NCBI GenBank assembly: GCA_963826535.1
Contig: CAWGXL010000011.1
Coordinates: 64,809-128,808 of the forward strand
Length of the DNA stretch: 64,000 nucleotides
Direction: 5' to 3'
DNA from: an uncultured bacterium
GTDB taxonomy: Bacteria; Patescibacteriota; Microgenomatia; Levybacterales; UBA12049
Position 1 is the first letter of the stretch, and every line of letters begins with the position of its first letter. The notes under the pieces were generated by a model. The model saw only the letters and a program-made list of their open reading frames with translations. It was not told the origin of the DNA and made no database searches. Made by a program: the position numbers and the translations under genes. This document shows positions 5,144 through 58,086 of this stretch, piece by piece.

Positions 5144-6055
5144 ATGACATTTCTTGAAAAATATCAACTTCTGAAAAAATCTGTTCCCGTTCAGTCGGTG
5201 ATGATTAGAGAGGGTACAATTGAATGTGAGTATGTGGATTTACTTACTAACAGCAGAAATTGCAACTATTGCTTCGATTCATCTTATCTTATAGATAGTA
5301 TTTATACTTCTGTTGGAGCGTGGAGTAAGAAACTAGTAGATTGTACTTTTGTAACAGAATCGGAAAAGTGTTACAAATGTATTGATTCCAATAAATGTTA
5401 TAACTGTACCTATTTGATGGATTGCAATAGTTGTACAGATTGTCATTTCTCTGCCTTTTTAAACTCGTCCTCTGATTGCTTCGGCTGCGTTAGTCTGACT
5501 CATAAGAAACATTGTCTCTTTAATAAGCAATACACCAAAGAGGGGTATTTTAAAAAATTAAATGAGTTGAAAAAAGAAAGTCCGGAAAAGATATTTGCTC
5601 AAATGCTTGAGTTAAAAAAACAGATACCGCATCCAGCAAGTCAGCAAAAAAATAATGAGAATTGTCCTTATGGTGATTATATATATGATTCAAAAAATAG
5701 TTTCTGGTGTTTTAATAGCTACTCCGTTGAAAATTCTGGCTATACCTTTAGTAGTGTGAACGCAAAGAATTGCTGGGATATATGGTGGTCAGGAAGTGGG
5801 GATAAAAAACTTATTGCAGAGCGATGTTATGAATTAGTTGATTCAGGACGTTCTACTTATGATTGTGCCTTTTTAGCATATTGTTTATTTTGTATGAACT
5901 GCTACTACGGTGCATACCTCAAGAACTGTACAGACTGCTTCGGTTGCGTGGGGTTAACAAATAAAAATACTGCGTTTTAAATAACCAACTAACTAAAGTC
6001 CAGTACGAAAAAGCAGTAAGAGATTTTAAGAGAGAACTTGGGTGGAAATTTTAAG
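5144..6055 (+). pseudogene. Cysteine-rich MTFLEKY-family paralog, frameshifted near the 3' end
   Basis: 278-aa ORF ends at GLTNKNTAF*. The conserved family C-terminus (YCVLNNQLTKVQYEKAVRDFKRELGWKF) continues in the +1 frame to about 6055. This is consistent with a 1-nt deletion relative to paralogs (aataaaaagtactg). Confidence 0.6.
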
Positions 6056-10974: not shown

Positions 10975-11883
10975 ATGACTTTTCTTGAAAAATATGAACT
11001 CCTTATAAAATCTATTCCGGTTCCAGCTGTGACGATTGGCCCAGATACCATTGATTGTGAATACGTTGATAATACCTATAGAAGTAAAAACTGCCATTAC
11101 TGTATCAACGGATCAGACCTCATAGGAGGTATATATACAAATTTGGGATTGGGGATTAAACTTGTAGATTGTGCTTCAGTGGTAGAGTCAGAAAAATGTT
11201 ATGAGTGTAATGATTGCAATAAGTGCCACAGCTGCACATACCTAATGGATTGTAACAGCTGTACGGATTGCCATTTTTCTGCTTTTTTAAATTCTTGTAC
11301 TGAATGCTTCGGTTGTGTAGCGTTAACTCATAAGAAGTATTGTATTTTCAATAAACAATACACAAAAGAAGAATATCTAAAAATGATAATAGAATTAAAA
11401 AAAGAAAAGCCGGAAAAAAATCTTGAAAAAATGGTTGAATTGAAACACAAGATACCGCATCCGGCAAGTCAACAAATAAATAACGAGAATTGTCCTTACG
11501 GGGACTATATATATAATTCTAATAATTGTTATTGGTGTTTTAATAGTTACTATTGTGAAAATTCCGGCTATAATTACGTGAGCGGTAGGGTGAATAACTG
11601 TTGGGATCTCTTTTTCTCAGGTGGAAACATAATTAAAAAAACTATTTCTGAGCGTTGTTATGAATTTGTGGATTCTGCTAATTGCTACGATTGTGCATTT
11701 TTAAACCTTTGTGAAAGTTGCACAAATTGCGACTATGGTACGTGGCTTTTAAACTGTTCCGATTGCTTTGGTTGTGTTGGGTTAAAAAATAAAAAGTACT
11801 GTGTTTTAAATAATCAGCTTACGAAAGTGCAATATGATAAAACTGTTAGAGAGATTAAGAATGAGCTTGGATGGAAATCTTAG
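10975..11883 (+). CDS. Cysteine-rich MTFLEKY-family protein (period-3 CxxC repeats), intact copy
   Basis: 302 aa. Shares the N-terminus MTFLEKYxLLxKSIPVPA, central CTDCHFSAFLNSCTxCFGCV...HKKYCIFNKQYTKEEY and C-terminus CVLNNQLTK..EIKNELGWK with five other copies in the window. A TGTTATAAT extended -10 sits at 10921. Confidence 0.7.
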   Translation: MTFLEKYELLIKSIPVPAVTIGPDTIDCEYVDNTYRSKNCHYCINGSDLIGGIYTNLGLGIKLVDCASVVESEKCYECNDCNKCHSCTYLMDCNSCTDCHFSAFLNSCTECFGCVALTHKKYCIFNKQYTKEEYLKMIIELKKEKPEKNLEKMVELKHKIPHPASQQINNENCPYGDYIYNSNNCYWCFNSYYCENSGYNYVSGRVNNCWDLFFSGGNIIKKTISERCYEFVDSANCYDCAFLNLCESCTNCDYGTWLLNCSDCFGCVGLKNKKYCVLNNQLTKVQYDKTVREIKNELGWKS

Positions 11884-11911: not shown

Positions 11912-14900
11912 TTAATTTACTTTCCCATCCGGCTGCATAGCAGTGCCCCCTCCGCCAAAATTTACAGTCCCATTTACTCCATTAGGTGCTTGATATGGAG
12001 GCTGAATACCAGGCTGGTTATTCATTGGCGGTGGTGGAGGTTGGTTTTGAGGTGTACCATTGGCTGGCTGTGGAACATTATTTTGTACAGGAGAGTAGTT
12101 GCCTTGAACCAGAGGCGGATTTTGCCCAGTACCAGACGGTTCAGGATTTTGCGCCGGTGGATTGTTGGGTTGTGAAGGAGGCTGACCTGACTGTCCGTCG
12201 GTAGGATTTTGCTGTCCCTGGCCAAACGGATAGTTCTGACTTGGGTCTGCGGGATTTGTCTGTGGGTTTACCGGCTGACCTACTTCTCCGGCAGGTGGGT
12301 TTTGCCCGGTACCAGGTGGCACCTGGTTATTTGTTTGCTGCGACGCATCCTGGGGTTGAGCTTGCAATTCAGCGGCGGAAGTATTGTTTGATACGTTGTC
12401 AATTGCATTTAAAATCATGATCGCTGTTTCGTCATTTTGTGTTTTTGCTTGATTGAGCTGCTCGATCAATTGCTGAATTTCTTCACTTGTTACCGCATCT
12501 GTCAAATTAAGCAAAGACGTTGCTAATTTATTACCTTTTTGGCTGGCTTCATCTACTTTGGTATGTAAATTCGTATACAACTCTTTTTCATCAGCATTTT
12601 CCGCGGTGATTGGATTGGCAATAAGAAGTAATGGCACTTTTATTTTCATTATTTCATTTTGCTTGATTGCATCCTGAATTGTGGCCAGTATCTCGGCAGC
12701 CAATGGATCGCCTTGATCTTTGGCCTGTTGTAGTTGGGTTTGTAATTGTTCTATGTCGTCATCAGATGTAATATCTGTAATATTTAAAATTTGTTCCGCG
12801 AGGGGATGATTCTGTTTCCCTGCTTCGCTCAGTTTGTCATAAAGATCTGAGAATTTCCTTTTATTTTCAGGTTCGGCTAAATAAAGCGGGTTGCCGAGTT
12901 GCTTCATGAACTTTTTAAATTTAGTTGTGGGATTGGCTTCTAATGCTTCTTCCGAAGCTTTGCTAATTTCACTATTCATGAGTGCGAGAATGTCGGTTGC
13001 CAGTTCGTTTTCAGTATCTTTCCCTTTGTTCAAATCTTCCATTATTTTTTCAATTGCCGATTGAGGCGAATCGGGTTTTAGTTGAAGAATTGCGGTGGCA
13101 ATCACATTGTTGTTCTGGCTTTCAACTACAACTTTATCATGCAGTTCTTTGAATTTATCGCGGGTAGCTACCGATGCTACTGTTTCCGGATTAACTATTG
13201 ATAAGAGAATTTTCTTTTCCCGCTCGATTGCTTTCAGCTGTTGGGCTATACCCGCTGCCAGGTCGAGTATTTCTTTTGCTAACTCGTCACCTTTCTCTTT
13301 CGCATCATTAAGTTTTTGTCTTATATCGCTAATCTCCTTGTCAGGCGTAGACGCGTTTACGGCAAGAATTGCGGCATAAACCGGATTTGCTCCAGTGCCT
13401 GCTGTGACTGTTTCTTTAGTTGCTTTATCTACTTCTGTGCCTGCTGCGGCAGCTTCTGTTTTTGCTTTATCTGCCTCTGTGGGCGCAGGAGTTACATCTG
13501 CGGTTGCTTTATCTATTCCAGTGCTTGCTGAGTTTGTTGCATTGCTTGCTGCGACAACTTTATCGTGTAATTTCTTGAATATTTCCAGGTCGAATCCAGC
13601 TGTTACATCTTCAGGCTTGGCAATTTTCTGTAAAATTACCTTGAATTCGCTATCGGTTAACAGCGTTACATCGCCTGCTTGTCCACCCTTGTTGAAAATG
13701 AATGCATTGATATTTTCATTATAGTCAATAACGATTGTATCCCCCGGCACGAATTTTTTGGAAATGATGGCGAGTGCGATCGGATTTTCTATGGTTGTTT
13801 GGATAAGACGGCGCAGGGGTCTGGCTCCATAGACAGGATCGTATCCATCTTTGGCTAGTTTAGCAATTGCTTTCTCAGTAATTTGTAAATGGAAGCCTTG
13901 CTCCTTTAATAGCCCGGCAGTCTTGGCGATACCAAGCCGCACTATGCCCGCCATGTGCTCAGGGCGAAGCGGCTTAAATATAACTACCTCATCGAAACGG
14001 TTGAGAAGCTCGGGACGTAAGAACTTAATCAGCTCATCTTTGACGATTTTTTGCAGTTCTGTAAATTGCTTGTTTAATTGTTCAGTTGTTAGTTTGACCT
14101 CTTTACCTTGTTTACTTAGGAATTGCTGGATGATAGCGCTCCCGATATTTGAGGTACATATAACTATAGTATTTTTAAAGGAAATAACATTTCCCTTGTT
14201 GTCTGTTAGTCTACCGTCTTCCAGAAGTTGTAATAGAATATTAAAAACGTCGGGATGAGCTTTTTCAATTTCATCAAACAAAACGATTGAGTATGGCTTC
14301 TTTCTAACCGCTTCTGTCAGTACGCCTCCTTCTTCATATCCAACATAGCCCGGAGGCGCGCCTATAAGCTTGGCAACTTCATGCTTTTCCATAAACTCGG
14401 ACATATCCAGACGAGCCATGGCATCATCGCGCCCGAATAATAATTCGGCTAAGGTTTTGGCAAGTTCAGTTTTTCCTACTCCAGTGGGACCAAGAAAGAC
14501 AAAAGAGGCGGTTGGTCTCTGGCCTGATGCGAGTCCAATTCTTCCACGTCGCACTGCTTCGGAAACCGCTACTACAGCTTCTTCTTGGTCGATAAGTCTC
14601 TGATGAATGCGTTCTTCGAGTTTTAGCAATTTTTCACTCTCGTCTTCAGTCAATTTGGTAATGGGAATTCCTGTCCAAGCGCTGACGACTTTCTCAATAT
14701 CGGCTTTTTTCACATCGCTGTCACCCCGTTTGCCTGTGTCTACCTGCAGTTTAACTTCAGCGCATCCCTCATCAAGCAAATCAATAGATTTATCAGGTAG
14801 AAAACGTTCTCCGATATATTTCTTGGCTAGTTTGATTGATTCTTTGAGCGCGTCATCCGGAATTTTAACACGATGGAATTTTTCATATTTTGTACGCAGC

Positions 14901-16276
14901 ACCTTCATCATTTCGAAGGCATTTTCATCACTTGGTTCTTCAGCGGTTACAGGTTGGAAACGGCGCTCAAATGCTTTATCTTTTTCAAAATGCTTGCGGT
15001 ATTCGGTTGTTGTGGTCGCGCCTATAATTTGCAACTGGCCGCGGGCCAGATATGGCTTTACGATATTGGCCGCGTTCATGCCCTCGCTTTCTCCCGCACC
15101 CATAAGAGAATGAATTTCATCTATAAACAGAATAATTGTTCCATTACTACCTAGGACTTCTGTAATTACCCCTTTGATTCTTTCTTCGAATTCGCCTCTA
15201 TGACTTGCACCAGCGACTAATGATGCAACATCCAGTTGAAAGATTCTTTTATTTAATATATCTTTGGGGACAGCATTAGCAACGATTTTTTGCGCTAACC
15301 CTTCGACTATTGCAGTCTTTCCCACACCTGTCTCGCCAATAATAATCGGATTGTTTTTGGTCCTGCGTAAAAGGATATGGAGGATGCGGTCAATTTCTTT
15401 TTCGCGCCCTGCGACAGGATCAAGTTTGCCTTCGCGGGCTTCAGCCGTTAAGTCAATGGCGTATTTTTCTAAAGTTGATTTCCTACCATAACCGCCGGTA
15501 GTTGATTTTGAAAGTTTATCTACAACTACTTCTTTTTTCAGACCAAGTGTTTGCAAAGTTTGTGCGGTTGAGTAATTAGGACCAAAAAGGACTACCAGAA
15601 TATCTTCCGGTGAAATGAAAGTTGATCCACGCATTTTCGCGTCCCGATAAGCTTGGTCAAAAACCTGCTGGGACACATTACTAAGTACCGGCTGACCTTT
15701 GTATGTTCCGACTCTTTCTTTGGCTTGAATTTCTTTGGAAAGCCTGCCTACATCAACCGCAAGTTCACCCAGTAATTTACTTATTTGTTGATCATATAAC
15801 AATCCAAATAATAACTGGTCAGGTTCAATAGATTGCTGATGGATTCTTCTAGATTCTTCTTGTGCGTGCGTTAATACCAGACTTGCTCTTGGATCCAGAT
15901 GTGAAAGGGCTGACGTATCTACTTTTGCAGAGGTGTTACCAAGGGCCGGATTTGTCTGTCCTTTTGGTAATCCGGCGCCAGGATGTCCTTCCGGAGGAGC
16001 TTGTCCTGCTTGTCCTGGGGGTGGATTCCCTGCACTAACAGGTGCTTGATTTTGTTGAGGACCGGCACCCGGTTGAGGAGGCGGTTGTTGTGCTGAATCT
16101 GGCGGTGGTGGCTGCTGATTATTTTGCTGAGGTTGATTTGACCCCTGTGGCGTATTTGCTTGGGCATCCTGGTTATTATATTGTTGATTTGGATCTTGAG
16201 GCGCCGATTGAACAGGTGGCGCCTGGGCTCCTTGTGCTTCCCCGTCTTTTTTTTGATTGAATAATTTTCCAAACAT
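11912..16276 (-). CDS. ClpA/ClpB-type double-AAA+ unfoldase with Pro/Gln-rich disordered tails and a C-terminal about 90-aa helical-repeat region
   Basis: Clp_N-like domain. D1 has Walker [16 protein letters not shown] and Walker [10 protein letters not shown]2 has [35 protein letters not shown] and GARPLRR sensor-2. The linker between D1 and D2 is too short for a ClpB M-domain. No [IVL]G[FL] ClpP-docking loop is seen after [11 protein letters not shown]. Residues about 900-1290 form repeats homologous to the neighbouring giant protein. N- and C-terminal roughly 125-160 aa are P/Q/N/G-rich. Confidence 0.75.
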
Positions 16277-16306: not shown

Positions 16307-19300
16307 TTACTTCTTTGCAATCTCTTCTTCTTCAGAAAGCGCTTTTGGTTCTTCTTCTTTTTTTATTCCCACTTCAACTTTTTCCTCTTTTTCATCTCCC
16401 AGCTTCAACACTGAAATTACTGTTTTTGCGGCTTTAAGTTTGACGTTGAGATAATCACTTATTTCCTGATAAGAGAATCCTCCCAAAAGCAGGAAAGGTA
16501 GAATGGTTCCCACTTTCTTGAGTCCATCATTTTTCTTATCTGTCTCAGGTGCGAGTAAAAGTGCGAGGGTTTCTTTTATTTCCTCAATCTCTTTCGTAAT
16601 CCATTCTATCCTTCCTTGTTTGTCGTCATTGAAGCCGAAAGGTACAGGAAGAGTCCGATAATTTTCTTCCCACATCTTTTCGATTTCCGTATAATCTTTT
16701 TGCGTAACGGATTGCAGTTTATTACTTTGGGGTACATCAGTTGCATTAATTTGAGAATGTGGCGAAACAGAATGTTTTGCTGCGGTTAAAATACTATCCG
16801 CAGTCTTGTCGCCTTTTTGACTTTTTTCGATAAGCTTCTGGCGTAGATTTTCTATTTTTTGCCGATCAGCCGGTATTTGGACATTTGTTGGGGTGGCGAG
16901 GTTTGCAAGTATTACATGCTCTTTGTGCATTTCTGTGATTTGAGATTTATCCCTAGCCAGAGACATGGCTTCATAACGGACTATATCTTTCATGGTCGGG
17001 AGCTTTAGTTCAACCATAGCCAGGATTTCATTGGAGACCTCGGGTGTGACAATGTTGGTGGCCGCAAATGAGGGGGTTGATATTTCAACTGAAGGCGCTT
17101 CTATATTGACTGCCATGGTTTGGGCTGCTTCCGCGTGTTTGGTTGCAACAGATACTTTGGTTTCTTCGTCAAGGGAAATGGATTTGAGAACATCTTTGGC
17201 TGCATCTTGTTTGGTTTGTAGATAAGAGACGATTTCGGATTGAGAGAAGCCTCCGACTAAAAGGAAGGGCAGAATGTTGGCTACTTCAGAGAGTCCCTGA
17301 TTTACTTTATCCTGATCAGCAGAGTTTAAGAGATTGGTTAAATTACCAATTTTCTCAATATCATCCTTAATCCATTCAGTTCTTGTTCCGGCCATGCCTT
17401 CAGGGACTTCCATATTATTGTAGTTTTCTGTCCACATTTTCTTGACATCTGCTAATTCTTCGGGGGTGACAGTTTGGATGCGGTTGGTTGAGGGAAGAGA
17501 TATTGCCTGTGGCAAAGCCCCTAAAACAGAAGTAGCTACAGATTCACCTTTAAGTTTTTCTTCTTTTAATTTATCACTTAATTTTTGGATATCTGCGCTG
17601 GTTGTTGATTTGTTCACGCTCAAGAGAGAAGTGGCAAGCTCATTGCCGCTTTGACTGGATTTGGCTATGGAATCATGTAATTTGGTCAGGCGCTCACGAT
17701 CAACCGGCGAGGAGATAGAGGCCGGATTGGCGATTTGTTGCAAAACTTGTCTAACTTTGTTGGTCTGTACAGATTTATTAACTGTTGACATAACAGAGGT
17801 AGCTAGAAGATTTGCGCCCTGCTGGCCTTTGTCAAGTTGTTCTCGGATCTTTTGCAGATCTGCATTTGAGGTACTATCGTTTACAGAAAGAATAGTACTG
17901 GCAAGTTCATTCTTCTTATCTTTTTCCTTAACTAGTATCTCATGTAACTTTGTGAATGCAACACGTTCCGATTCAGAAGTGACTGAAGCCGGATTGACGA
18001 TTTGCAGGAGAACGTTTTTGAAGTCTGATGATTGAGTTGCGCTAAAAGCCGCTTTTTGCATAGCAGAACTGGCTGCATTTAAAACTATATCCGCAGTTGC
18101 GTTGCCTTTTTGGCTTTCTTCGAGGAGTTTTTCCCGGAGCTTATCAAATCTAACTCTTTCTGTACTGACAGTAGCTGACGCAGGGTTGGCAATTCTTTCA
18201 AGTGTTTCGCGAACTTTTTGCACCTCTCCAAGTTGCGATTTGTCTCGGGACATTGACATGGTCTCAAAGCGGGCAATATCACGCATTCTGGGTAATTTCA
18301 ATTCAACCATAGCCAGGATTTCATTGGAGACCTCGGGTGTGACAATGTTGGTGGCCGCAAATGAGGGGGTTGATATTTCAACTGAAGGCGCTTCTATATT
18401 GACTGCCATGGTTTGGGCTGCTTCCGCGTGTTTGGTTGCAACAGATACTTTGGTTTCTTCGTCAAGGGAAATGGATTTGAGAACATCTTTGGCTGCATCT
18501 TGTTTGGTTTGTAGATAAGAGACGATTTCGGATTGAGAGAAGCCTCCGACTAAAAGGAAGGGCAGAATGTTGGCTACTTCAGAGAGTCCCTGATTTACTT
18601 TATCCTGATCAGCAGAGTTTAAGAGATTGGTTAAATTACCAATTTTCTCAATATCATCCTTAATCCATTCAGTTCTTGTTCCGGCCATGCCTTCAGGGAC
18701 TTCCATATTATTGTAGTTTTCTGTCCACATTTTCTTGACATCTGCTAATTCTTCGGGGGTGACAGTTTGGATGCGGTTTAAGGAAGGGACACTGATGCTT
18801 GCCTGCTGGGCGGCTGTTGCAAGTACATCTGCGGCAACCGATTCACCTTTAGTCTTGGCTTCATTTAATTTGTCACTTAATTTTTGGATATCTGCGCTAG
18901 TGGTTGATTTATTTACAGATAACAGCGAGGTCGCAAGTTCATTTCCCTTCTGACTTTCTTTTGTCAGGGCTTCATGCAGTTTAGTCATTTTTTCTTTATT
19001 AATAGCTGTAGCTGTGGCGGGGTTGGCGATTTGTTGGAGAACGTCTTTGACTTTGGTCATGTTTTGTGATTTTTGTAAACTGCTACTAATTGTTGTAAGT
19101 ACTTGTGAAGACATAGCAGAGTCTTTTGATTGCTGGAGTTTTTCGCTGATTTTTTCAAGCTCTGTTTGTGTTGTGATATCTTTTACTTGCAAGATTTGGC
19201 CTGCTAATTGGTTGTTATTCTCTTTACTTTCGTGTGCAAGCATGTCGTGGAGTTTGGTCATCTTTTCACGATCAGATGAATTGGTAGCTGAAGCCGGGTT

Positions 19301-21523
19301 GGCGATTTGCTGGAGTACGCTTTTAACTTTGGTCATGTTTTGTGCTTTCTGCAGGCTACCATTGATTGTAGAAAGCAACTGCGAGGACATGGTAGATTCT
19401 TTTGATTGCTGGAGTTTTTCGCTGATTTTTTCAAGTTCTGCTTGTGAAGTAGTATCTTTTACTTGCAATATAGAGGATGCAAGTTGATTATTATTCTCTT
19501 TACTTTCATGTGCAAGCATGTCGTGGAGTTTGGTCATCTTTTCACGATCAGATGAATTGGTAACTGAAGCCGGGTTGGCGATTTGCTGGAGTACGCTTTT
19601 AATTTGGGTAGCTCTGACTGCATTGCTTACCTGAGAGGCTGCTGAGTTGCCAACTGTGCTCTCTTTTACTAATTGATCCCTTATTTTGTCAAGTTCATTT
19701 GCTGTGGTTTTGTCGTTAACAGAGAGAATTGAGCTGGCTAATTGATTACTCTTTTCTTTACTTTCCTTCGAGAGCATGTCATGGAGTTGAGACATTCTCT
19801 CACGATCTACAACATTTGATGTTTGGGCCGGATTGGCAATTTGTTTTAGTATGTTTCTCAAATGTGAATCTGAGGCTTGAACGTTTCTTTGTGATTGATT
19901 ATTGGCGGCTGAATTTATAGCATTTAAGATAGTTGTCGCTACGAGATTTCCCTGTTGAGCCTCTCTGACTATTCTTTCATTCATATTTGCATATCTTTCA
20001 CGTTCTATCGTTGAGGTAACCGCGACCGGGTTACCAATTTTTTCAAGCATTTCACTCATCTTCATTACTTCTTGTCTTTGGCTTGCGTTATTGGATGAAA
20101 GCGCGGTGTCGTATCTGGCGATATCCCGCATTGTAGGAAGCGGGATACTTGCAAAACTTAAAACTTCGGCATTTATTTGAGCATGTGGAACAGAATATGT
20201 TAGAGCGGTACCAGCTCCCTGAGTTTCTCTAATTATTTCTTTGGCTGCGCCGCCAGGCCTCATAGTAGGAGTGAGTGCAATTGGAATATTCACCGACTTT
20301 TTTGTAAATGGTAAAGTCAAGGCAGTGCCTCCAGGCTGAGATCCGGGCGGATATCCTGTAGGTGAAGATGGCGGAACCATCTTATTGCCTAATAAAGTAA
20401 CAAGGTTTTTCATCATTGCGTTATCACCGGAAAAGTTAGCAGCGTAGTCTAAAAAGATTTGCAATAAAATCCAGGGAAGTAGAATAACGATCCATAACAT
20501 TATTAGCGCAACAACATAAAGCATGAAAGTCTCTGTAAGATTAACACTGTTGGTCGGAGTAACGAACTGCCTGGGTCCTCCAAGGAGAATATTTACAGCG
20601 GTGGGATATATAATTTTAGTCGGGTCTTGAATAGCGGGATTGACGAACTGTAAGGGAATTGCCTGTCTCCACATAAATACTAAACCCTGGAGGAAAATCG
20701 CGAAGAGCGGACCATATAATAGCCAGCGGAAGAATTCTCCAATCCAAATCTTGCCAGTATTGCGAACCGGATAAAATAAAAGCAGGAGTGGGAATACCGG
20801 GGATACTATTATAAAGAACCATAAAATTATTTTTCTAATCAATAATATGCCTACCATAACATAGTACGTAAGCGCGGTTAATTTAGTCAGTAATAATGAA
20901 ATAAAGGCTGATTCAGCGTTATAATCACCAAGCAGGCGTAATCCGACAAAGTCCTGGTAGTTCCAACCTACAAAGAGTAAGTCTTGATTGGATATGCAGT
21001 CAGGGGGACAATTAGTGGTGCCTGAACGTAAGAAGAATCCTTGTATTAGATCGGTGAATTGATATAGAAATTGCAGTATTGCGTATGACAAGGCAATTAA
21101 TATCAGTACAGCAGTAAATCTGGGAATAAAACGCATAATAGTGAGACTTCTTCCTCTAGAAATTATAATTATCATGGAGGTTGCTAAAATAACCAATATT
21201 AGAAGAGGCAAAACAATATAGAGGACTATTGTCCACCAAAATTGTGCCAATGGATTAGCCGCGTTGTCGCAATTACGATCGGCTACCTTGGTTACACAAA
21301 CCCATTGGTAATTTAGCAATGTCCAGTTTAGGACGTAACCTGATCGAGCAGCGTTTTTGCCAATAAAGGTTACTTCAGGGTCTACTACCCATAACCCTGC
21401 GGCGGGGGATGCTGTTTGTTGTTGGGCCGGGGCGGGAGCTTGTGCATTGGTAACTGCTACCGGATAAACCAAGGAAACAAAACAATATATTATTGCAAGA
21501 AAAATGGGCAGAAATTTTTTCAT
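16307..21523 (-). CDS. Giant (1738 aa) polytopic membrane protein with an array of about 92-aa helical repeats; N-terminal region VirB6/TrbL-like in topology
   Basis: Signal peptide, then at least 6 TM helices in the first roughly 400 aa. Then about 10 repeats of QIANPAxxTNSSDREKMTKLHDMLAHESKENNNQLASSIL...KISEKLQQSK. A large module (IQTVTPEELADVKKMW...LPFLLVGGFSQSEIVSYL) is present 3 times, two of them identical at nucleotide level. Confidence 0.7.
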   Translation of the reverse strand: MKKFLPIFLAIIYCFVSLVYPVAVTNAQAPAPAQQQTASPAAGLWVVDPEVTFIGKNAARSGYVLNWTLLNYQWVCVTKVADRNCDNAANPLAQFWWTIVLYIVLPLLILVILATSMIIIISRGRSLTIMRFIPRFTAVLILIALSYAILQFLYQFTDLIQGFFLRSGTTNCPPDCISNQDLLFVGWNYQDFVGLRLLGDYNAESAFISLLLTKLTALTYYVMVGILLIRKIILWFFIIVSPVFPLLLLFYPVRNTGKIWIGEFFRWLLYGPLFAIFLQGLVFMWRQAIPLQFVNPAIQDPTKIIYPTAVNILLGGPRQFVTPTNSVNLTETFMLYVVALIMLWIVILLPWILLQIFLDYAANFSGDNAMMKNLVTLLGNKMVPPSSPTGYPPGSQPGGTALTLPFTKKSVNIPIALTPTMRPGGAAKEIIRETQGAGTALTYSVPHAQINAEVLSFASIPLPTMRDIARYDTALSSNNASQRQEVMKMSEMLEKIGNPVAVTSTIERERYANMNERIVREAQQGNLVATTILNAINSAANNQSQRNVQASDSHLRNILKQIANPAQTSNVVDRERMSQLHDMLSKESKEKSNQLASSILSVNDKTTANELDKIRDQLVKESTVGNSAASQVSNAVRATQIKSVLQQIANPASVTNSSDREKMTKLHDMLAHESKENNNQLASSILQVKDTTSQAELEKISEKLQQSKESTMSSQLLSTINGSLQKAQNMTKVKSVLQQIANPASATNSSDREKMTKLHDMLAHESKENNNQLAGQILQVKDITTQTELEKISEKLQQSKDSAMSSQVLTTISSSLQKSQNMTKVKDVLQQIANPATATAINKEKMTKLHEALTKESQKGNELATSLLSVNKSTTSADIQKLSDKLNEAKTKGESVAADVLATAAQQASISVPSLNRIQTVTPEELADVKKMWTENYNNMEVPEGMAGTRTEWIKDDIEKIGNLTNLLNSADQDKVNQGLSEVANILPFLLVGGFSQSEIVSYLQTKQDAAKDVLKSISLDEETKVSVATKHAEAAQTMAVNIEAPSVEISTPSFAATNIVTPEVSNEILAMVELKLPRMRDIARFETMSMSRDKSQLGEVQKVRETLERIANPASATVSTERVRFDKLREKLLEESQKGNATADIVLNAASSAMQKAAFSATQSSDFKNVLLQIVNPASVTSESERVAFTKLHEILVKEKDKKNELASTILSVNDSTSNADLQKIREQLDKGQQGANLLATSVMSTVNKSVQTNKVRQVLQQIANPASISSPVDRERLTKLHDSIAKSSQSGNELATSLLSVNKSTTSADIQKLSDKLKEEKLKGESVATSVLGALPQAISLPSTNRIQTVTPEELADVKKMWTENYNNMEVPEGMAGTRTEWIKDDIEKIGNLTNLLNSADQDKVNQGLSEVANILPFLLVGGFSQSEIVSYLQTKQDAAKDVLKSISLDEETKVSVATKHAEAAQTMAVNIEAPSVEISTPSFAATNIVTPEVSNEILAMVELKLPTMKDIVRYEAMSLARDKSQITEMHKEHVILANLATPTNVQIPADRQKIENLRQKLIEKSQKGDKTADSILTAAKHSVSPHSQINATDVPQSNKLQSVTQKDYTEIEKMWEENYRTLPVPFGFNDDKQGRIEWITKEIEEIKETLALLLAPETDKKNDGLKKVGTILPFLLLGGFSYQEISDYLNVKLKAAKTVISVLKLGDEKEEKVEVGIKKEEEPKALSEEEEIAKK
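17009..17487. repeat. Perfect about 479-bp direct repeat inside the giant gene, copy 1
   Basis: Region 17009-17487 is identical to 18302-18780 (offset 1293 nt). This was checked line by line. Antisense ORFs 16992..17225 and 18102..18518 translate identically. Confidence 0.85.
18302..18780. repeat. Perfect about 479-bp direct repeat inside the giant gene, copy 2
   Basis: See copy 1. Encodes the duplicated module VTPEELADVKKMWTENYNNMEVPEGMAGTRTEW.... Confidence 0.85.
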
Positions 21524-21529
21524 GTTTTT

Positions 21530-21829
21530 TTACTTAGCAAAACCCGGAATGTTTAAAATGTCGACTGCGAGAAATTGGAAAAAAACAAATCCAAAAATTG
21601 CGAGCAATAAACCGGCGATCGCGCAGACTATATAGCTTTTTCCAACATTGAGCTGGTGTGGTTCTCCGCGGGAAGTTAAGATTGTATATCCGCCCCAAAT
21701 TATCATTATCAATGATAGACCGGCAACAAAACCTATTCCGTAACCGTAAAATTTTTGCACAAATCCGATTGGGTCATTTGGCCAGCAGCCAAAGTCTGTT
21801 TGGATTTCATTTAATGCGCAGGCAGCCAT
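21530..21829 (-). CDS. Small two-helix membrane protein, VirB2/TrbC- or VirB3-like (pilin-like)
   Basis: 99 aa with two hydrophobic helices (GFVAGLSLIMIIWGGY and SYIVCAIAGLLLAIFGFVFF) separated by a short polar loop. 6-nt gap to the giant gene. Confidence 0.4.
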   Translation of the reverse strand: MAACALNEIQTDFGCWPNDPIGFVQKFYGYGIGFVAGLSLIMIIWGGYTILTSRGEPHQLNVGKSYIVCAIAGLLLAIFGFVFFQFLAVDILNIPGFAK

Positions 21830-21927: not shown

Positions 21928-22305
21928 TTAAGAATGCACATTATGTGAAAGGAGCTTTTTCACATTATCCACTATATCCTCGGGCGTATTATTTGACTTG
22001 AGAAGAAAGGCTTTTGCCCCCCAATTTTTTAAGAGATCTTCGGCATTGGCGTAAATATTCGTTAATACAAGAATAGGAATTTTATTTAGTACAGGATCAT
22101 TCTTTGCAAGCTTGAGAACATCAAAACCACTTACTCTCGGCATTATGAGGTCAAGAAGGACGACATCAGGCTTAAAAGACTTCATCTTTTTAATTCCATC
22201 CTGACCATCAACTGCTGTTTGAACGTCAAATCCCTCATGCACAAATTTATCACGATACATCTCAAGTAGAATTACATCATCCTCTACCAATAAAATCTTA
22301 TTCAT
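21928..22305 (-). CDS. Stand-alone CheY-like receiver-domain response regulator
   Basis: 125 aa REC domain only (LVEDD, DLIMP phospho-acceptor region). Overlaps the upstream paralog by 8 nt. Confidence 0.7.
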   Translation of the reverse strand: MNKILLVEDDVILLEMYRDKFVHEGFDVQTAVDGQDGIKKMKSFKPDVVLLDLIMPRVSGFDVLKLAKNDPVLNKIPILVLTNIYANAEDLLKNWGAKAFLLKSNNTPEDIVDNVKKLLSHNVHS

Positions 22306-22690
22306 ATTTGTCCTTTTTAGAATTACTTAAAACTTCATTTGCTTTTTTTACCACATCTTCAGGTGTTGTATTGGCTTTGATCAAGCAATAAACCGGGCTA
22401 TACTCCATAATCGCTTCAAGTACTTTCCCATCCACATTTAGATTAGTTAATACCATAATCGGAACAGTTTCGCCCCAACTGTCAGCACGCAACTTCTTCA
22501 TCATTTCCATTCCGTTCAATTTCGGTAAAGCAAGATCCAGTAAGATAATATCCGGTTTACGATCCAGTGCCAGCATTAATCCCTTCTCACCGTCTTCCGC
22601 GTTAACAGGATTAAAGTTGCTAAATTGAAATTTATCCTTATACATGTCAGCCAGCACCTGGTCATCTTCTACTATTAATACACTCTTCAT
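22298..22690 (-). CDS. Stand-alone CheY-like receiver-domain response regulator (paralog)
   Basis: 130 aa REC domain only (IVEDD, DLALP). No output domain. Confidence 0.7.
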   Translation of the reverse strand: MKSVLIVEDDQVLADMYKDKFQFSNFNPVNAEDGEKGLMLALDRKPDIILLDLALPKLNGMEMMKKLRADSWGETVPIMVLTNLNVDGKVLEAIMEYSPVYCLIKANTTPEDVVKKANEVLSNSKKDKYE

Positions 22691-22770
22691 AAAAATAACA
22701 TTAAAATCTTACTCCATTTTATACCACTCCACTTTCAAAATGCAAAATGTATAATATTGTGAAGTCCCGC

Positions 22771-25212
22771 TTAGCGTGGCGATGTGGTATTTCCAGTTTC
22801 CTGAACAAATGCAATTTCGCGTCCATTTTCAAGCTCTGTTTTTGCTTTTTTAGCAGTAGGTGTTTCAGCTTTCGGAAGAATAAAAGTAAACGTGCTTCCG
22901 CGACCTGTACTCGATTTTTCTAGTCGCACATCTCCCCCCATCTTGCGGGCAAGTTCGCGTGAAATGTAAAGTCCCAGTCCGGAACCGGCAGGCCTAGTAG
23001 ATTTATATGTACTTAGTTGGGCAAATTTTCGGAATAATTTGCTTTGATCAGCCGGATCTATTCCTGTACCGGTATCGGTAAAAGCAATATACACAAAGTC
23101 ACGCACGCGGTAATATTTGATAGAAATCTTACCCTTATCGGTAAATTTCAATGCATTACCAAGAAGATTATTAAATATATGCCTTACCCACTCAATATCT
23201 GCCTGAACTAAGACTTCCTGCTTACTTTCAACATTTATAACTACCTCTTTTTGCTGCGCAATTGGTTGCAGCGATTTAGTGACATCGTCCAGCACCGGCC
23301 AAAGAGTGAAATTAGTCAACCGAAATTCAATTCTGCCCGTTTGAAGGCGGGAAACATTTAACAGATCATTTATTAAATGAATTTGACGCTTTGCAGAAAC
23401 AGATATATTCTCAAGCGGTTTCTTAAGCTTAGAATTTACAGGTCCATAATCACCATGAAGGATCATTGAAAGGAATCCGTTAATGGCAGTCATGGGAGTC
23501 CTTAGTTCATGTGATGCCATTGAGATAAATTCATCTTTCATTCGACTAACTTCTTTCTCTTTCGTAATATCATGGAAAACCTCTATTGCTCCAAAAAGTT
23601 TATCTTCGAGAGTAATTGGTGTAACAGTAAAGCGCACAGGGAGTTTTGTTTTATCTTTTTTTACATAGTAATTAGTTTTGGATGTTACAATTTTTTTACG
23701 CTGTGAAAGCACTTTGGTCATAGGCCGCGCGTCAAGGGGCAAAATTTTACCGGTCTCATCCTCCATGGGGATTGTATCTACAAGAAGTTTGCCAACCAGC
23801 TCTTTTTCTTTCCATCCAAGAGTTTCGCAGGCAACTTGGTTGACCATTGTAATCTTCCCGTAATTGTCTGTCGCAATAATTCCATCCCCGATACTTGCAA
23901 GCATTGCCTCATCAGTTGTTGTTTCCTGAAGCATTGTTTCTTCTAAAATCTTGCTTTCTGTTATATCATGAAAGTTAATCACAACCGCGTTGACATCCGG
24001 TTCAAAGAGCAAATTTGTGCCGGTTGCTTCGACCCAAATAGTCTTTTTATCTTTCCGGATACTTTGGTATTCCACCGTTACAACACCCCTTGGTTTAACA
24101 ACCAACTCAGCAAGTTTACCCATAGTCATCTTTCTATTTGCGGCAGCTACAAGATCAAATCCGTTTTTTCCAATTAATTCTTCCGGCGAATAGCCCAAAA
24201 TTCGCTTAACCGACGGGCTTGCAAAGCTTATTTTTGAAGTCGCGTCAATGAGAACAACGCCATCAGAACTGTTTTCAATAAGCGCTTGAAATCGTTGCTC
24301 ATGCGACACCAGAGCTTTTTCACTTTTGCGGATTGCGAGAACTGTTGCGGCAAATGTCAATCCTGTAAGTGAAAAAATACCCAAAAACAGCTGTAATAAG
24401 ATGAGTGATTGATTGATAGTTGGTGCATTTGAAAATGGTCCTTGTCCGCCCAACGTAGCAAATATAGCAATTCCCGCCATAAACAGAGTTGTAACCGTAG
24501 CTCCTTTTTGTCCAAACCAAAACGCAATCCAGACAGCAATCGGAATACTCAAATAAGGATAGGGGAGAATTCCGGTAAAGACAATTACAGCAATTATAAA
24601 AAGAATAATTAGCGTGAGAAAAAAATGAAGCGCTTTTTTAAAATCAAGACGTATCCTCAGAGCACGTCCCCAAACTAAAAGTAACGGAGCCACAACAAGT
24701 GCTCCTCCCATATCTCCGAGCCACCATGTTGTCCACACCGACCAAAATTCACTCCAGCTCGCGAGCCCGCCAATAATAAGCGTTACAACACCTATATCAG
24801 CGCTCACCATCGTACTTAGCATTGCTCCAAAAAAAGTAAACTTAAATATATTTGAAACACTATCAAAAGCATGGAGGCCATTGGCAAGTTTATTTACTAA
24901 ATATGCACCAACTACGCCTTCCAAGCTGTTTCCCAGCGCAATTCCAAGAGAAGTTGCTATAGTCCCAGCTGTAGTAAAATTGACAAAAAAAGCGCCCAGA
25001 AAAATTGCAGGGACAACCCGGTTTCCAAAAAGAAGAATTGATGCCAGTGCGATGCCTGTCGGCGCCCAAATTGCTGTCGCACTTGGATTTACAGAAGCAA
25101 GTGACAGGCCTAATTTGCCCGCGGCTATATATGCTAATGCAATAATGATATTAAGAAGGATTATCTTAATCAAAGTGAGTGGCCAAAATTTGTGATGGAT
25201 CTTTTCTATCAT
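22771..25212 (-). CDS. Sensor histidine kinase with N-terminal polytopic (MASE1-like) membrane domain, two PAS domains, HisKA and HATPase_c
   Basis: About 8 TM helices, then PAS-like segments (SDGVVLID..., GDGIIATDNYGKITMVNQ). H-box FISMASHELRTPM. G-boxes GTGIDPAD and GSGLGLYISRELA. Confidence 0.8.
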   Translation of the reverse strand: MIEKIHHKFWPLTLIKIILLNIIIALAYIAAGKLGLSLASVNPSATAIWAPTGIALASILLFGNRVVPAIFLGAFFVNFTTAGTIATSLGIALGNSLEGVVGAYLVNKLANGLHAFDSVSNIFKFTFFGAMLSTMVSADIGVVTLIIGGLASWSEFWSVWTTWWLGDMGGALVVAPLLLVWGRALRIRLDFKKALHFFLTLIILFIIAVIVFTGILPYPYLSIPIAVWIAFWFGQKGATVTTLFMAGIAIFATLGGQGPFSNAPTINQSLILLQLFLGIFSLTGLTFAATVLAIRKSEKALVSHEQRFQALIENSSDGVVLIDATSKISFASPSVKRILGYSPEELIGKNGFDLVAAANRKMTMGKLAELVVKPRGVVTVEYQSIRKDKKTIWVEATGTNLLFEPDVNAVVINFHDITESKILEETMLQETTTDEAMLASIGDGIIATDNYGKITMVNQVACETLGWKEKELVGKLLVDTIPMEDETGKILPLDARPMTKVLSQRKKIVTSKTNYYVKKDKTKLPVRFTVTPITLEDKLFGAIEVFHDITKEKEVSRMKDEFISMASHELRTPMTAINGFLSMILHGDYGPVNSKLKKPLENISVSAKRQIHLINDLLNVSRLQTGRIEFRLTNFTLWPVLDDVTKSLQPIAQQKEVVINVESKQEVLVQADIEWVRHIFNNLLGNALKFTDKGKISIKYYRVRDFVYIAFTDTGTGIDPADQSKLFRKFAQLSTYKSTRPAGSGLGLYISRELARKMGGDVRLEKSSTGRGSTFTFILPKAETPTAKKAKTELENGREIAFVQETGNTTSPR

Positions 25213-46350: not shown

Positions 46351-47256
46351 CTATTCCACCCACCCTAATTCTATTTTGATCTCTTTTACAGACTTTTCAT
46401 ATTGGTCTTTGGTCAACTGATTGTTTAAGATACAATATTTTTTATTTTTTAATCCCACACAACCGAAGCAGTCGGAGCAATTTTTAAGATACGCGCCATA
46501 GTGGCAATTTGTACAACTAAAAGAAAAACTTAGAAAGACACAATTATAGCAACAGTCTGTCCATACATGTTCATAGCATTGCTCTGAAATTTTTTTTGAT
46601 TCTGTGTCCCCTCCGGCAAAATACATATCCCAACAGTTTTTCATCATGCCAGCTTGATAACTATAACCGGAGTTTTCAGCGTAATAAACCGCAAAGCACC
46701 AATAACAATTTTTTGAATCATAGATATAATTTCCATATATACAATTCTCGCTATTGAACTGCTGGTTTGCCGGATGCGGTATCTTTTCTTTTAATTCAAG
46801 CAGTTGAGCAAGGATCTTTTCCGGTTTTTCTTTCTTTAATTCTTCTAACTTTTTCAGATATTCCTCTTTCGTATATTGTTTGTTGAAAATACAATATTTT
46901 TTATGAGTAAGACCAACGCAACCGAAGCAGTCAGTACAAGAGTTTAAAAAGGCAGAGTAATGGCAATCTGTACAATTATTACATTCGATAAGGTATGTGC
47001 AACTATGAGATTTTGTACATTCAATACTTTGAAAACACTTCTCCGATTCAAAAACGGACGTACAATCTACGAGGCTCGTACCCATACTACGATTCGCATA
47101 AATACTGTCATAAAGTCTGTATGAATCAAAGCAGTAATAACTGTTCTTACTAATATCGACCATATCTACATATTCACAAGCAACATTATCTCTAATCATT
47201 ACAGCCGGCACGGGAACAGATTTTTTTAGGAGCGCATATTTTTCAAGGAAGGTCAT
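46351..47256 (-). CDS. Cysteine-rich MTFLEKY-family protein (array position A)
   Basis: 301 aa. Family N- and C-termini. 3' end and upstream region are nucleotide-identical to paralogs. Confidence 0.7.
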   Translation of the reverse strand: MTFLEKYALLKKSVPVPAVMIRDNVACEYVDMVDISKNSYYCFDSYRLYDSIYANRSMGTSLVDCTSVFESEKCFQSIECTKSHSCTYLIECNNCTDCHYSAFLNSCTDCFGCVGLTHKKYCIFNKQYTKEEYLKKLEELKKEKPEKILAQLLELKEKIPHPANQQFNSENCIYGNYIYDSKNCYWCFAVYYAENSGYSYQAGMMKNCWDMYFAGGDTESKKISEQCYEHVWTDCCYNCVFLSFSFSCTNCHYGAYLKNCSDCFGCVGLKNKKYCILNNQLTKDQYEKSVKEIKIELGWVE

Positions 47257-47288: not shown

Positions 47289-48197
47289 TTATATTTTCCA
47301 CCCTAATTCTATTTTGATCTCTTTTACAGACTTTTCGTATTGTTCTTTGGTTAGCTGATTATTTAAAATACAATATTTTTTTTTGGAGAGTCCTACGCAT
47401 CCGAAGCAGTCGGTGGAGTTCCTAAGATCTGCGCTATAGTAGCAATGCGTGCAATACTCAGAATTGTTTAAATACGCACATTCATAATTAGCATCAGAAT
47501 CAGTAATTTCATAACAGCGTTCAGAAAAAATTCTTTTGTTTACATCTCCTCCGTTATAAAAGCCATCCCAGCAGTTTTTCAACAGTCCTCCTATTGTTAA
47601 ATAACCAGAATTTTCACTTTCGTAACTGTTAAAGCACCAATAGCAGTTTTTTGAATCATACATGTAATTTCCATATAGGCAATTTTCACTATTGAACTGC
47701 TGGCTTGCTGGATGGGGGATTTTTTGTTTTAAATCAAACATTTTCTTGAGTAAGTTATCATGCTTCTCTTTTTTCAATTCATCAACCTTTTTCAGATATT
47801 CCTCTTTAGAGTACTGCTTATTAAAAATGCAATATTTTTTGTGTGTTAAGCCAATACAGCCGAAGCAATTTGTGCAATTGTTTAAATAAGCCGATAAATG
47901 ACAATCAGTAGAATTGTTTGAATCAAAAATATAAGTGCAGCTATGGCATTTAGTTGAGTCAACTGACTCGTAGCATTTTTCTGATTCCATTTGTACAAAA
48001 GTACAATCTACAAGTTTATTCCCCCAGCAATAGTAACAATATATACTATCTACGAGCAAATAACAGCCGATGCTATAATAGCAATTTTTACTGCTATAAC
48101 AATAATCTACGTAGTGACAATCAATTGAATGGGTACCAATTGCAGCCGGGACAGGAATTGATTTTTTAAGGAGTTGGTATTTTTCAATGAATGTCAT
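47289..48197 (-). CDS. Cysteine-rich MTFLEKY-family protein (array position B)
   Basis: 302 aa. Shares the upstream block ttaagaagtatgccttatttaaac with copy B'. Confidence 0.7.
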   Translation of the reverse strand: MTFIEKYQLLKKSIPVPAAIGTHSIDCHYVDYCYSSKNCYYSIGCYLLVDSIYCYYCWGNKLVDCTFVQMESEKCYESVDSTKCHSCTYIFDSNNSTDCHLSAYLNNCTNCFGCIGLTHKKYCIFNKQYSKEEYLKKVDELKKEKHDNLLKKMFDLKQKIPHPASQQFNSENCLYGNYMYDSKNCYWCFNSYESENSGYLTIGGLLKNCWDGFYNGGDVNKRIFSERCYEITDSDANYECAYLNNSEYCTHCYYSADLRNSTDCFGCVGLSKKKYCILNNQLTKEQYEKSVKEIKIELGWKI

Positions 48198-48345: not shown

Positions 48346-49258
48346 TTAATATTTCCACCCAAGCTCTTTTTTTATAATTTTTACTGCTTTTTCGTATTGT
48401 TCTTTTGTAAGCTGATTATTCAAAATACAGTATTTTTTATTCTTAAGTCCCACACAGCCGAAGCAGTCTGTGCAGTTTGTAAGATCTGCGCTATGGTAAC
48501 AATTCGTGTTATTCTCAGAATTATATAAATAGGCGCATTCATAATTACATCTGGATTCAGTCAATTCATAACATCGCTCTGACTTTGTTTTGGTACCAGG
48601 AATCCCACCAGAGCGAAACATATCCCAACATTTTATTGCACTAGCAATAACAAATATATAGCCGGAATCTTCGCTATAAAATGCGCTAAAACTCCAAAAA
48701 CAATTTTTGGAGTCATATAAATAATTCCCATAAGGAGAATTTTCAGTGTTGGACTGCTGGCTTGCGGGATGTGGGATTTGTTTTTTTAATTCATTCATTC
48801 GCTCAAGAATTTTTTCCGGCTTTTCTTTTTTTAATTCAGAAAGTTTTTTAAAATACTCATCTTTTTTATATTGTTTATTAAATATGCAATACTTCTTGTG
48901 GCTTAGAGCAACACAACCAAAGCAATCTGTGCATGAGTTTAATAAAGCGGAAAAATGACAGTCTGTACTGTTATTGCATTCTATAAGATATGTAGAGCTA
49001 TAGCACTTTGTACATGCAACACATTCATAGCAGTTTTCAGACTCATACAAATATGAGCATTCAACAAGATTATTACTGGCGGCACAGAAATAAGTATAAA
49101 TACAGTACTCGAAGAGTGCTCCCGTCAAAACAGTAATAGCAATTTTTACTTCTGTATGTACCGTCTACATATTCACTGTCAACGGTATACGGACCAATCG
49201 ACACAGATTGAACGGGGATGGATTTTTTTAGGAGTTGGTATTTTTCAAGAAAGGTCAT
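48346..49258 (-). pseudogene. Cysteine-rich MTFLEKY-family paralog (array position A'), frameshifted near the 5' end
   Basis: Family N-terminus MTFLEKYQLLKKSIPVQSV lies in ORF 49073..49258. The remainder lies in ORF 48346..49128 in another frame. Confidence 0.6.
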
Positions 49259-57769: not shown

Positions 57770-58086
57770 AATAAATCCTCTTATCCGACCCTATATCTTA
57801 TCCAAATGTACGCTTGGAACGAGCACGCAAAGGCGCCAATTCGGATATAGGGTCTTTGTAAGGTAATTATAGATTATCTATGTAAATATATCAATATATA
57901 TCAAGAATACTAAATTAATCAAAGTGGCTCAAAATTCTATGTCTCAATATTATAATCCGGATCGCAAATTAAATCCCTCCCAACTTCCCTTTAGAAAAGG
58001 CAGAGGAAGGATTGCAAGTTCCTTAAGCCTTGATTGTTTTCTGAATCGGTAGAAGCTATAATAAATTTGATTGATTATAAGTCTGA

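Follow-up and report, generated by a model that had tools for sequence, protein, structure and literature searches.

What are long tails of extreme composition doing at both ends of a bacterial Clp ATPase? The question is raised by a 64,000-nucleotide (nt) stretch of contig CAWGXL010000011.1 (assembly GCA_963826535.1, positions 64,809 to 128,808, forward strand; the window in what follows), which stems from an uncultured bacterium of the Levybacterales within the Patescibacteriota and encodes a Clp/Hsp100 protein of 1454 amino acids (aa), here called the tailed Clp. A preliminary description of the window had singled out both tails as prion-like. Our analysis favors, at a probability of about 55%, a different reading, in which the tails are disordered tethers that carry docking peptides on a dedicated unfoldase and hold it at a VirB6-like platform or the membrane. 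The argument draws on the following parts of the gene:

11912..16276, minus strand: tailed class-I Clp/Hsp100 ATPase gene, one continuous open reading frame (ORF) of 1454 aa
16247..16276, minus strand: conserved N-terminal decapeptide, aa 1-10 (motif in homologs, identity among orthologs)
15902..16246, minus strand: N-terminal disordered linker rich in P, Q, N, G, and A, aa 11-125 (composition, ortholog variability, charge-hydropathy plot)
13697..15901, minus strand: body of Clp_N domain and D1 and D2 ATPase modules, aa 126-860 (Pfam, PDB sequence matches, alignments)
12377..13696, minus strand: all-α repeat domain, aa 861-1300, four to five 'IANP' units of ~88 aa (blastp, repeat hidden Markov model (HMM), AlphaFold2 (AF2))
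13397..13534, minus strand: Ala/Thr/Lys-rich low-complexity insert in repeat unit 1, aa 915-960 (ortholog gaps, tandem DNA repeat, AF2)
11915..12376, minus strand: C-terminal disordered tail rich in P, Q, N, and G, aa 1301-1454 (composition, predicted local distance difference test score (pLDDT) from AF2, variability, charge-hydropathy plot)
12212..12235, minus strand: conserved island NYPFGQGQ in the C tail, aa 1348-1355 (79-sequence consensus and orthologs)
11921..11965, minus strand: conserved 15-aa C-terminal peptide, aa 1438-1452 (clade alignment of C-terminal ends)

Five residues dominate both tails. Q, P, A, G, and N account for 19, 19, 13, 11, and 10% of aa 1-125, and P, Q, N, G, and A for 21, 16, 16, 12, and 7% of aa 1290-1454, with a sum of 72% in each case. 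The preliminary description had placed the tails at 15900-16276 (aa 1-125) and 11912-12406 (aa 1291-1454) and quoted two strings from them, which lie at aa 54-79 and aa 1371-1402. Low-complexity tails are indeed found in both places, although calling them 'almost entirely' Q, P, N, G, and A slightly overstates a strong enrichment. The C-terminal ~165 aa are of low complexity as described, but the whole addition to the Clp body is ~595 aa long and begins with the folded repeat domain (aa 861-1300). It also holds that such tails are rare on bacterial Clp ATPases, since typical ClpB, ClpC, and ClpA proteins lack them. In 40-aa windows of the tails the summed Q, N, P, and G content reaches 0.80, whereas none of the remaining ORFs of 100 aa or more in the 64-kb window has any such window above 0.42. 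This composition is therefore a property of the tailed Clp gene and not of the proteome, and a proteome-wide low-complexity bias or drift was rejected as its source. Both tails plot on the disordered side of a charge-hydropathy plot. AF2 was run on aa 861-1454 with 79 sequences as input; the resulting pLDDT is below 50 for aa 1301-1454 and exceeds 90 in the adjoining all-α repeat domain at aa 871-910 and 961-1300.

Retention of the tails in related genomes, which the preliminary description had named as a check, is clear. A search of 5.8 billion proteins recovered more than 100 clusters with ATPase cores 65-91% identical, and corresponding tails are seen in more than 100 orthologs. Those cluster members that bear a name belong to Patescibacteria, Levybacteria or Levyibacteriota and are called 'ClpC' in their source records. 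Long forms (1200-1660 aa) have N-terminal extensions of ~75-180 aa and C-terminal extensions of ~320-780 aa, and short forms (~890-950 aa, core 68-71% identical) have N tails of ~60 aa and C tails of ~100-150 aa. Over 111 full-length members, N linkers measure 38-165 aa (median 98 aa) and C tails 43-255 aa (median 128 aa); the median linker composition is 16% P, ~20% Q+N, 16-19% S+T, 11-12% A, and 8-10% charged residues. For P, Q+N, and G, the window protein is among the top ~10% of these members, and S/T/A-rich tails occur in many others. What the family has in common is a polar, proline-rich, low-charge disordered linker, and a strong Q/N flavor marks only the clade of the window protein.

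A different picture emerges at the very ends of the protein. Among the 27 closest orthologs, identity to the window protein is 0.84 for aa 1-10, 0.86 for the ATPase core, and 0.53 for aa 861-1289, as compared to 0.28 for the N linker (21% gaps), 0.21 for the C linker (32% gaps; 0.15-0.30 in single stretches), and 0.43 for the last 14 residues. The N-terminal decapeptide MFG[KNST][LIF]FNQKK (MFGxΦFNQKK) is nearly invariant; ~110 of 120 homologs begin with M[FL]Gx[LIFM]F, the short forms with MLGNLF[NST]Q[KR]K, and in each fetched locus that has the gene the motif occurs only at the start of the tailed Clp. Within the C tail, the island NYPFGxGQ is visible in many orthologs and appears as 'YPFGxxQ' in the 79-sequence consensus. 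The C-terminal end reads VN[YF]GGGGTAMQ[PA]DG[KR] in the clade of the window protein, NGAAMQP.NAYNYSGIP.S.RP.NY[VI]APQ..QEE[IV]E in a second clade, and GMSALNE[IV]L.R......ESDGE.I[ST] in a third. On sequence grounds, a hypervariable linker followed by a conserved short end peptide is the pattern of a disordered tether with a short linear motif. Because the peptides beyond the linkers are conserved, the linkers must remain in frame and translated, and the conserved ends point to a tether or docking role. We infer that the end peptides are docking motifs. That the N-terminal motif targets the membrane is a guess; its hydrophobic moment is low, but so is that of a MinE control sequence.

A candidate site for such docking is suggested by the two genes directly upstream of the tailed Clp gene:

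16307..21523, minus strand: extended VirB6/TrbL-like polytopic membrane protein of 1738 aa with nine IANP units in its C-terminal region, 30 nt upstream of the Clp gene
21530..21829, minus strand: VirB2-like pilin-type protein of 99 aa with two transmembrane (TM) segments, 6 nt upstream of the VirB6-like gene and first of the apparent operon

The folded domain between ATPase body and C tail is shared with the larger of these neighbors. It is built from units of ~88 aa with the signature 'IANP...R.K...LHD.L..ES..GN.LA..IL', which a repeat HMM places at aa 882, 963, 1024, 1124, and 1216 of the Clp. The domain aligns with the VirB6-like protein over 436 aa (blastp E=3e-56, 31% identity), and a Foldseek search of the PDB gave no match with E below 0.5, the best ones (0.5) being generic helical bundles. 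Among 1.84 billion cluster representatives, the repeat profile matched 136 proteins at E≤0.001, at least 87 of them with a VirB6-like N-terminal membrane domain; the remainder appear to be extensions of Clp proteins or fragments (~40 were read). Since just these two contexts were found, the repeat is private to this gene pair, and an occurrence in other protein families was rejected. The number of units per locus varies from 1 to 11 in the VirB6-like protein and from 0 to 5 in the Clp (2-5 in long forms); short-form Clps carry no repeats though their VirB6-like neighbors do. Recent gene conversion between the Clp and its neighbor is unlikely, with the Clp repeats being 53% identical between orthologs and ~31% identical to those of their own neighbor. 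Because of this difference, and of the repeat-less short Clps beside repeat-bearing neighbors, the Clp lineage most likely gained its repeats from the neighboring gene family long ago and in one direction.

The arrangement of the three genes is also stable. We retrieved 22 loci from species-representative genomes with the pilin-like protein, of which 19 extend far enough, and the order pilin-like, VirB6-like, tailed Clp was found in 19 of these 19 Levybacteria-type loci. The trio is present as well in the window, in a 1.6-Mb chromosome (L001), in a 1.08-Mb contig with a short-form Clp (L002), and in an 886-kb contig (L003), and its intergenic gaps measure tens of nucleotides. The 99-aa protein has two hydrophobic helices, is 61-63% identical to its orthologs, and matches the T4SS_pilin family (PF18895) below threshold (E=0.0097, 16.4 bits, cut-off 26.6); weak precomputed matches to the same family exist for the orthologs in L001 and L003.

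The assignment of the 1738-aa protein combines several signals. Pfam gave no match for the window protein itself, but its homologs (47-66% identical) score 23-26 bits against TrbL (PF04610, cut-off 25.9), and the source record of one homolog gives its name as 'type IV secretion system protein'. The N-terminal ~390 aa are polytopic. AF2 modeled this membrane domain (mean pLDDT 75) as a signal-peptide-like helix followed by five long helices, among them a single 50-residue helix at aa 200-249. In a Foldseek search of the PDB the top eight matches were all TrwI/VirB6 of the R388 type IV secretion system (T4SS), with probabilities of 0.33-0.99 (top five at least 0.85); these matches are weak in terms of E values (0.03 to 2.3) and target TM-scores (0.35-0.49). 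Singly weak and jointly consistent, the signals from sequence and model suggest a divergent VirB6-like protein. If the long helix is counted as one TM segment, a five-TM reading results that fits the positive-inside rule in all larger loops, and the protein would have an N-out/C-in topology with a cytoplasmic repeat region. The homologous repeats of the Clp must be cytoplasmic because the ATPase is signal-less, which agrees with the C-in topology. The repeat region of the VirB6-like protein also has a layered structure of its own. It contains three super-repeats of 'LPxMRDIARYE', IANP units, and 'VTPEE..MWxENY..LPFLLxGGFS'; the gene carries a 276-nt tandem DNA repeat at 19008-19607 (2.2 copies, 85% match), and two nearly identical segments of ~180 aa indicate a recent internal duplication.

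The ATPase itself belongs to class I of the Clp/Hsp100 AAA+ proteins by its sequence, with two AAA+ modules and a D2-small domain. Pfam detects Clp_N (aa 138-185), AAA (aa 311-423, 3e-22), AAA_lid_9 (aa 449-518), AAA_2 (aa 587-764, 7e-70), and ClpB_D2-small (aa 770-850, 1.4e-23), and Walker-type motifs are visible as stretches of 16 and 18 residues. The closest PDB sequence matches are ClpB (E=1.8e-201) and ClpC (6em8, E=3.8e-201), followed by a weaker match to ClpA (1e-139). In the alignment, however, ~9 residues ('DTGKRGDSD') stand in place of residues ~415-527 of E. coli ClpB, so that the M-domain is absent, as it is in the 79-sequence consensus. The ClpP-docking loop of S. aureus ClpC ('FAGFGG') aligns to an 11-residue stretch without docking tripeptide, and none of the 72 parsed family members has an [ILVMF]G[FLM] tripeptide at this position. 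The name 'ClpC' thus hides a distinct Hsp100 subclass that has no M-domain, no ClpP loop, and an altered D1 pore loop. As both the M-domain and the ClpP-docking loop are absent, the tailed Clp probably works on its own as an unfoldase or extractor and is likely neither the partner of a protease nor a ClpB coupled to DnaK. The pore loops deserve mention in their own right. The D1 loop (aa 355-363) reads GASHRGEFE, with His for the canonical Tyr of ClpA, ClpB, and ClpC in 117 of 120 members, and the D2 loop has the canonical form GAPPGYVGY in 119 of 120; the combination of an aromatic residue in both the D1 K-Y-R and the D2 G-Y-V-G loop, which defines the canonical pore, is not found.

In the reading that we favor, the linkers would act as long, flexible leashes that keep the short terminal peptides at a distance from the ATPase ring, so that a hexamer would expose twelve tethers, six from its N-termini and six from its C-termini. 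Together with the tethered peptides, the repeat domain would recruit the unfoldase and keep it at the cytoplasmic region of the VirB6-like platform or at the membrane, where it might exert a pull on clients, either pilin-type proteins or others of the membrane or of secretion.

Several observations weigh against this picture. The C-terminal motif is clade-specific and perhaps not one motif, and AF2 placed no C-terminal peptide on the Clp's own repeat domain. A plain hydropathy count gives six TM segments after the signal peptide of the VirB6-like protein, which would put its C-terminus outside the cell, and the opposing five-TM reading derives from one AF2 model and the positive-inside rule. 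Moreover, the trio lies downstream of hrcA-grpE-dnaK-dnaJ or of dnaJ in L001-L003. Because the gene cluster often follows these chaperone genes, the Clp could be a general heat-shock disaggregase whose adjacency to the VirB6-like gene is historical. Finally, the composition of the linkers shifts between close relatives, with 6% Pro in the N linker of one ortholog (L005) as compared to 22% in the window protein, and neutral drift would likewise produce such wide shifts.

Neutral drift leads to the alternative that survives best, although we regard it as unlikely: the tails might be low-complexity expansions, generated by replication slippage or compositional drift and tolerated at the termini, where they would do nothing but fill space. 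Their sequence, length, and composition turn over very fast, as this explanation would predict, and the same gene provides an example of the process. A 42-nt tandem DNA repeat (2.1 copies, 13395-13481) underlies the Ala/Thr/Lys-rich insert at aa 915-960. In the 27 closest orthologs, aa 931-960 are gapped in 100% and aa 901-930 in 63%, which marks the insert as genome-specific, and AF2 assigns a pLDDT below 50 to aa 933-961 within it. Because of this 46-aa insert, low-complexity expansions evidently arise readily in this gene. However, no full-length member (n=111, core identity 65-91%) lacks the linkers, the minima being 38 aa on the N-terminal and 43 aa on the C-terminal side. The conserved peptides beyond the linkers require that frame and translation be maintained, and the other proteins of the 64-kb window have no such tracts.

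Quite improbable, in our view, is the idea closest to the preliminary description, namely that the tails are prion-like or phase-separating and make the ATPase assemble with itself into condensates, amyloid-like or liquid, such as stress foci. The term 'prion-like' fits insofar as the tails are disordered, low in complexity and charge, and rich in Q, N, P, and G. With 29-33% Q+N they qualify as Q/N-rich in the clade of the window protein, the closest clade is consistently Q/N/P-rich, and hexamers would render the tails multivalent. In the yeast or amyloid sense the term is unsupported. Prolines and charged residues disfavor prion formation and F, I, V, Y, M, and W strongly favor it; the Sup35 prion domain contains 20.2% of such promoting residues, and its longest stretch free of inhibitors comprises residues 4-27 (PMC3930707). 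In the tails, proline amounts to 19-23% and P plus charged residues to 26-30% (~9% in Sup35), promoting residues make up just 3-11% (20% in Sup35), and the longest run free of P and charge spans 7-17 residues (24 in Sup35). An approximate PAPA-type score peaks below zero in both tails (N tail -0.27, C tail -0.10; Sup35 +0.10). Each tail has 1-5 aromatic residues and no Arg. Such sparse stickers argue against strong homotypic phase separation, which might nevertheless occur in a hexamer with its twelve tails. The Q/N-richness is also not conserved in the family, where the median Q+N content is ~20%, S/T/A-rich tails occur, and L005 differs strongly; conservation resides in the end peptides and not in the bulk composition. 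The tails thus appear prion-like only superficially.

A role in regulating the enzyme itself is very improbable. Here the tails would be pseudo-substrates or 'slippery' tracts that engage or escape the ATPase's own pore or N-domain and thereby gate its activity. Some other control would be expected because the repressing or regulatory M-domain of ClpB and ClpC is absent. Tracts rich in Gly, Pro, Ala, and Gln are poorly gripped by AAA+ pore loops, and the Tyr to His exchange in the D1 pore loop could be seen in the same context. However, no intramolecular docking of the C tail is apparent in the AF2 model, and self-regulation leaves unexplained why the end peptides are the conserved part and why the repeat is shared with the neighbor. 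A frame error, an over-extended ORF, or misassembly of low-complexity DNA can practically be dismissed: spurious ORFs can arise in such DNA, and a 117-aa ORF in another frame does overlap the N tail (15919-16272), but the annotated frame has no stop in either tail of the window gene and 13 orthologs (25-126 stops in the other two frames), the ATG that starts the conserved N-terminal motif lies 5 codons past an in-frame stop with no internal Met before the Clp_N domain, and this architecture recurs in more than 100 independent assemblies.

If the tails are tethers with docking peptides, a wider picture may be drawn, for which the odds are against us at present. Levybacteria-type Patescibacteria might possess an undescribed minimal envelope machine with three parts: a VirB2-like pilin, a platform formed by the extended VirB6-like protein, and a dedicated, ClpP-independent Hsp100 unfoldase without M-domain and with His in its D1 pore loop, which would be coupled to the platform via the private repeat and the peptide-tipped tethers. 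The pulling force of such a machine would come from the Hsp100 ring, instead of or beside VirB4, and would serve to extract pilin subunits, to insert or recycle them, or to unfold cargo at a channel of T4SS origin. The ORFs scanned in the 64-kb window contain neither a VirB4 nor a VirD4 domain, nor do the genes called within 10 kb on either side in L001-L003; a complete T4SS, in the sense of VirB4 together with VirB2 and VirB6, is accordingly not seen in these regions. A survey of patescibacterial T4SS genes reported abundant VirB2-like pilins, often away from virB4, and found VirB6 to be 'scarce' in Microgenomatia, 'suggesting extreme sequence divergence'; it mentions no Clp partner (PMC12102498). 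Our literature search turned up no paper on these tails and none in which a Clp ATPase is connected with VirB2 or VirB6 of Patescibacteria.

Patescibacteria (candidate phyla radiation) account for much of the diversity of bacteria; they are epibionts whose genomes are very small. Because the genomes are so small, a multi-kilobase module that they retain is probably important. A distinct Hsp100 subclass is consistently encoded behind a divergent pair of VirB2-like and VirB6-like genes and shares with the VirB6-like member a domain found almost nowhere else. Should the coupling be real, it would represent a new way to power or service a T4SS-derived structure and a bacterial case of AAA+ unfoldase recruitment by long disordered leashes. 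Should it not be real, the attractive but weakly founded notion of a bacterial prion-like chaperone would still have been corrected.

The genomic surroundings of the module differ between the window and its relatives. Upstream of the trio in the window, two stand-alone receiver-domain response regulators and an 813-aa histidine kinase (MASE1-PAS-PAS-HisKA-HATPase) are encoded at 21928-25212 (minus strand), in the place that dnaK-dnaJ occupy in the related genomes. No CIRCE operator was found upstream of the module in the window at up to 3 mismatches, and promoter and terminator scans of the window gave counts no higher than in shuffled sequence. Several relatives encode a second two-ring Clp of ~802 aa without Clp_N domain, 0.4-5 kb downstream of the tailed Clp and 36-40% identical to its core, which is not present in the 64-kb window:

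L001, 14779-17187: second ~802-aa Clp
L002, 13171-15588: second ~802-aa Clp
L003, 19370-21781: second ~802-aa Clp
L010, L020, L023, and L024: second ~802-aa Clp also present

Also encoded in the window are six Cys-rich proteins of ~300 aa that are paralogous to each other (56-83% aa identity) and share the motif 'PHPASQQxNNENCPYGDYIY'; one of them is convergent with the tailed Clp gene at a distance of 28 nt. Two of the six were compared with Pfam and gave no match. Their positions are:

5144-5980, plus strand: Cys-rich paralog
10975-11883, plus strand: Cys-rich paralog
46351-47256, minus strand: Cys-rich paralog
47289-48197, minus strand: Cys-rich paralog
48346-49128, minus strand: Cys-rich paralog
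49291-50199, minus strand: Cys-rich paralog

The single Rfam match in the window is a DUF3800-IX RNA (RF02968) at 57783-57854 on the minus strand (39.2 bits, gathering threshold 36.8), and a search of the 64 kb for tRNA genes was negative. Several metagenome-assembled genome (MAG) records that bear the module (L005, L011, L013, L016, L017, and L018) go by the titles 'uncultured Gammaproteobacteria bacterium', 'Candidatus Acidiferrales' or 'Sulfotelmatobacter', which look like mislabels of patescibacterial bins.

How, then, does the tailed Clp compare with known systems? The Sup35 N domain and bacterial prion-like domains, such as that of Clostridium botulinum Rho, resemble its tails in being disordered, charge-poor, and low in complexity with ~30% Q/N. 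The tails differ from Sup35-type domains by a proline content that is ~4-5 times higher, by aromatic and hydrophobic residues that are 2-7 times less frequent, by the lack of a long inhibitor-free segment, and by a Q/N enrichment that is not conserved across orthologs. Among the Clp proteins, ClpC shows a sequence similarity close to that of ClpB and has lent its name to the ortholog records, but the tailed Clp lacks both its ClpP-docking (V/L/I)-G-F loop and its M-domain, the element of ClpC that interacts with MecA and forms the resting state. ClpA likewise has no M-domain; its IGL-type ClpP-docking tripeptide, however, has no counterpart here. ClpB and Hsp104 share with the tailed Clp two AAA+ rings, a Clp_N domain, and the lack of a ClpP tripeptide, ClpB provides the best PDB sequence match, and related genomes carry the tailed Clp just downstream of hrcA-grpE-dnaK-dnaJ. 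Hsp104 also has a C-terminal peptide that docks partners, as its DDLD motif binds the TPR domains of Sti1 and Cpr7 (PMC5480384), whereas docking by the tailed Clp is putative. In contrast to ClpB and Hsp104, the tailed Clp lacks the ~120-aa coiled-coil M-domain used for Hsp70 coupling, has His in place of the D1 Tyr, and adds disordered tails of 125 and 154 aa, a private repeat domain of 440 aa, and synteny with VirB2-like and VirB6-like genes.

ClpV of the type VI secretion system (T6SS) resembles the tailed Clp in concept, as a ClpB-family protein without ClpP coupling that is dedicated to one envelope-spanning apparatus and encoded next to the structural genes of the latter. However, no T6SS genes lie near the tailed Clp, whose neighbors are of the T4SS type (VirB2-like and VirB6-like). 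ClpV also recognizes its client via the N-domain and has neither disordered tails nor repeats shared with a neighbor, and the dedication of the tailed Clp to its neighbors is presumptive. Extended VirB6 proteins, such as F-plasmid TraG with its N-domain and the large VirB6 paralogs of Rickettsiales, likewise combine a polytopic VirB6/TrbL-like N-domain with a very large C-terminal extension. The extension of the protein described here differs in being made of repeats found only in this patescibacterial module, including the adjacent Clp. Parallels to the tails themselves come from unrelated proteins. FtsZ has a disordered C-terminal linker followed by a conserved C-terminal peptide, and Hsp70 and Hsp90 end in EEVD tails. 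In each case a hypervariable disordered linker of variable length presents a short conserved end peptide that docks partners, and the acidic QEE[IV]E-COOH end of the second Clp clade resembles the EEVD tails of Hsp70 and Hsp90. Unlike these proteins, the tailed Clp has such a linker, with a putative docking peptide, at both of its termini.

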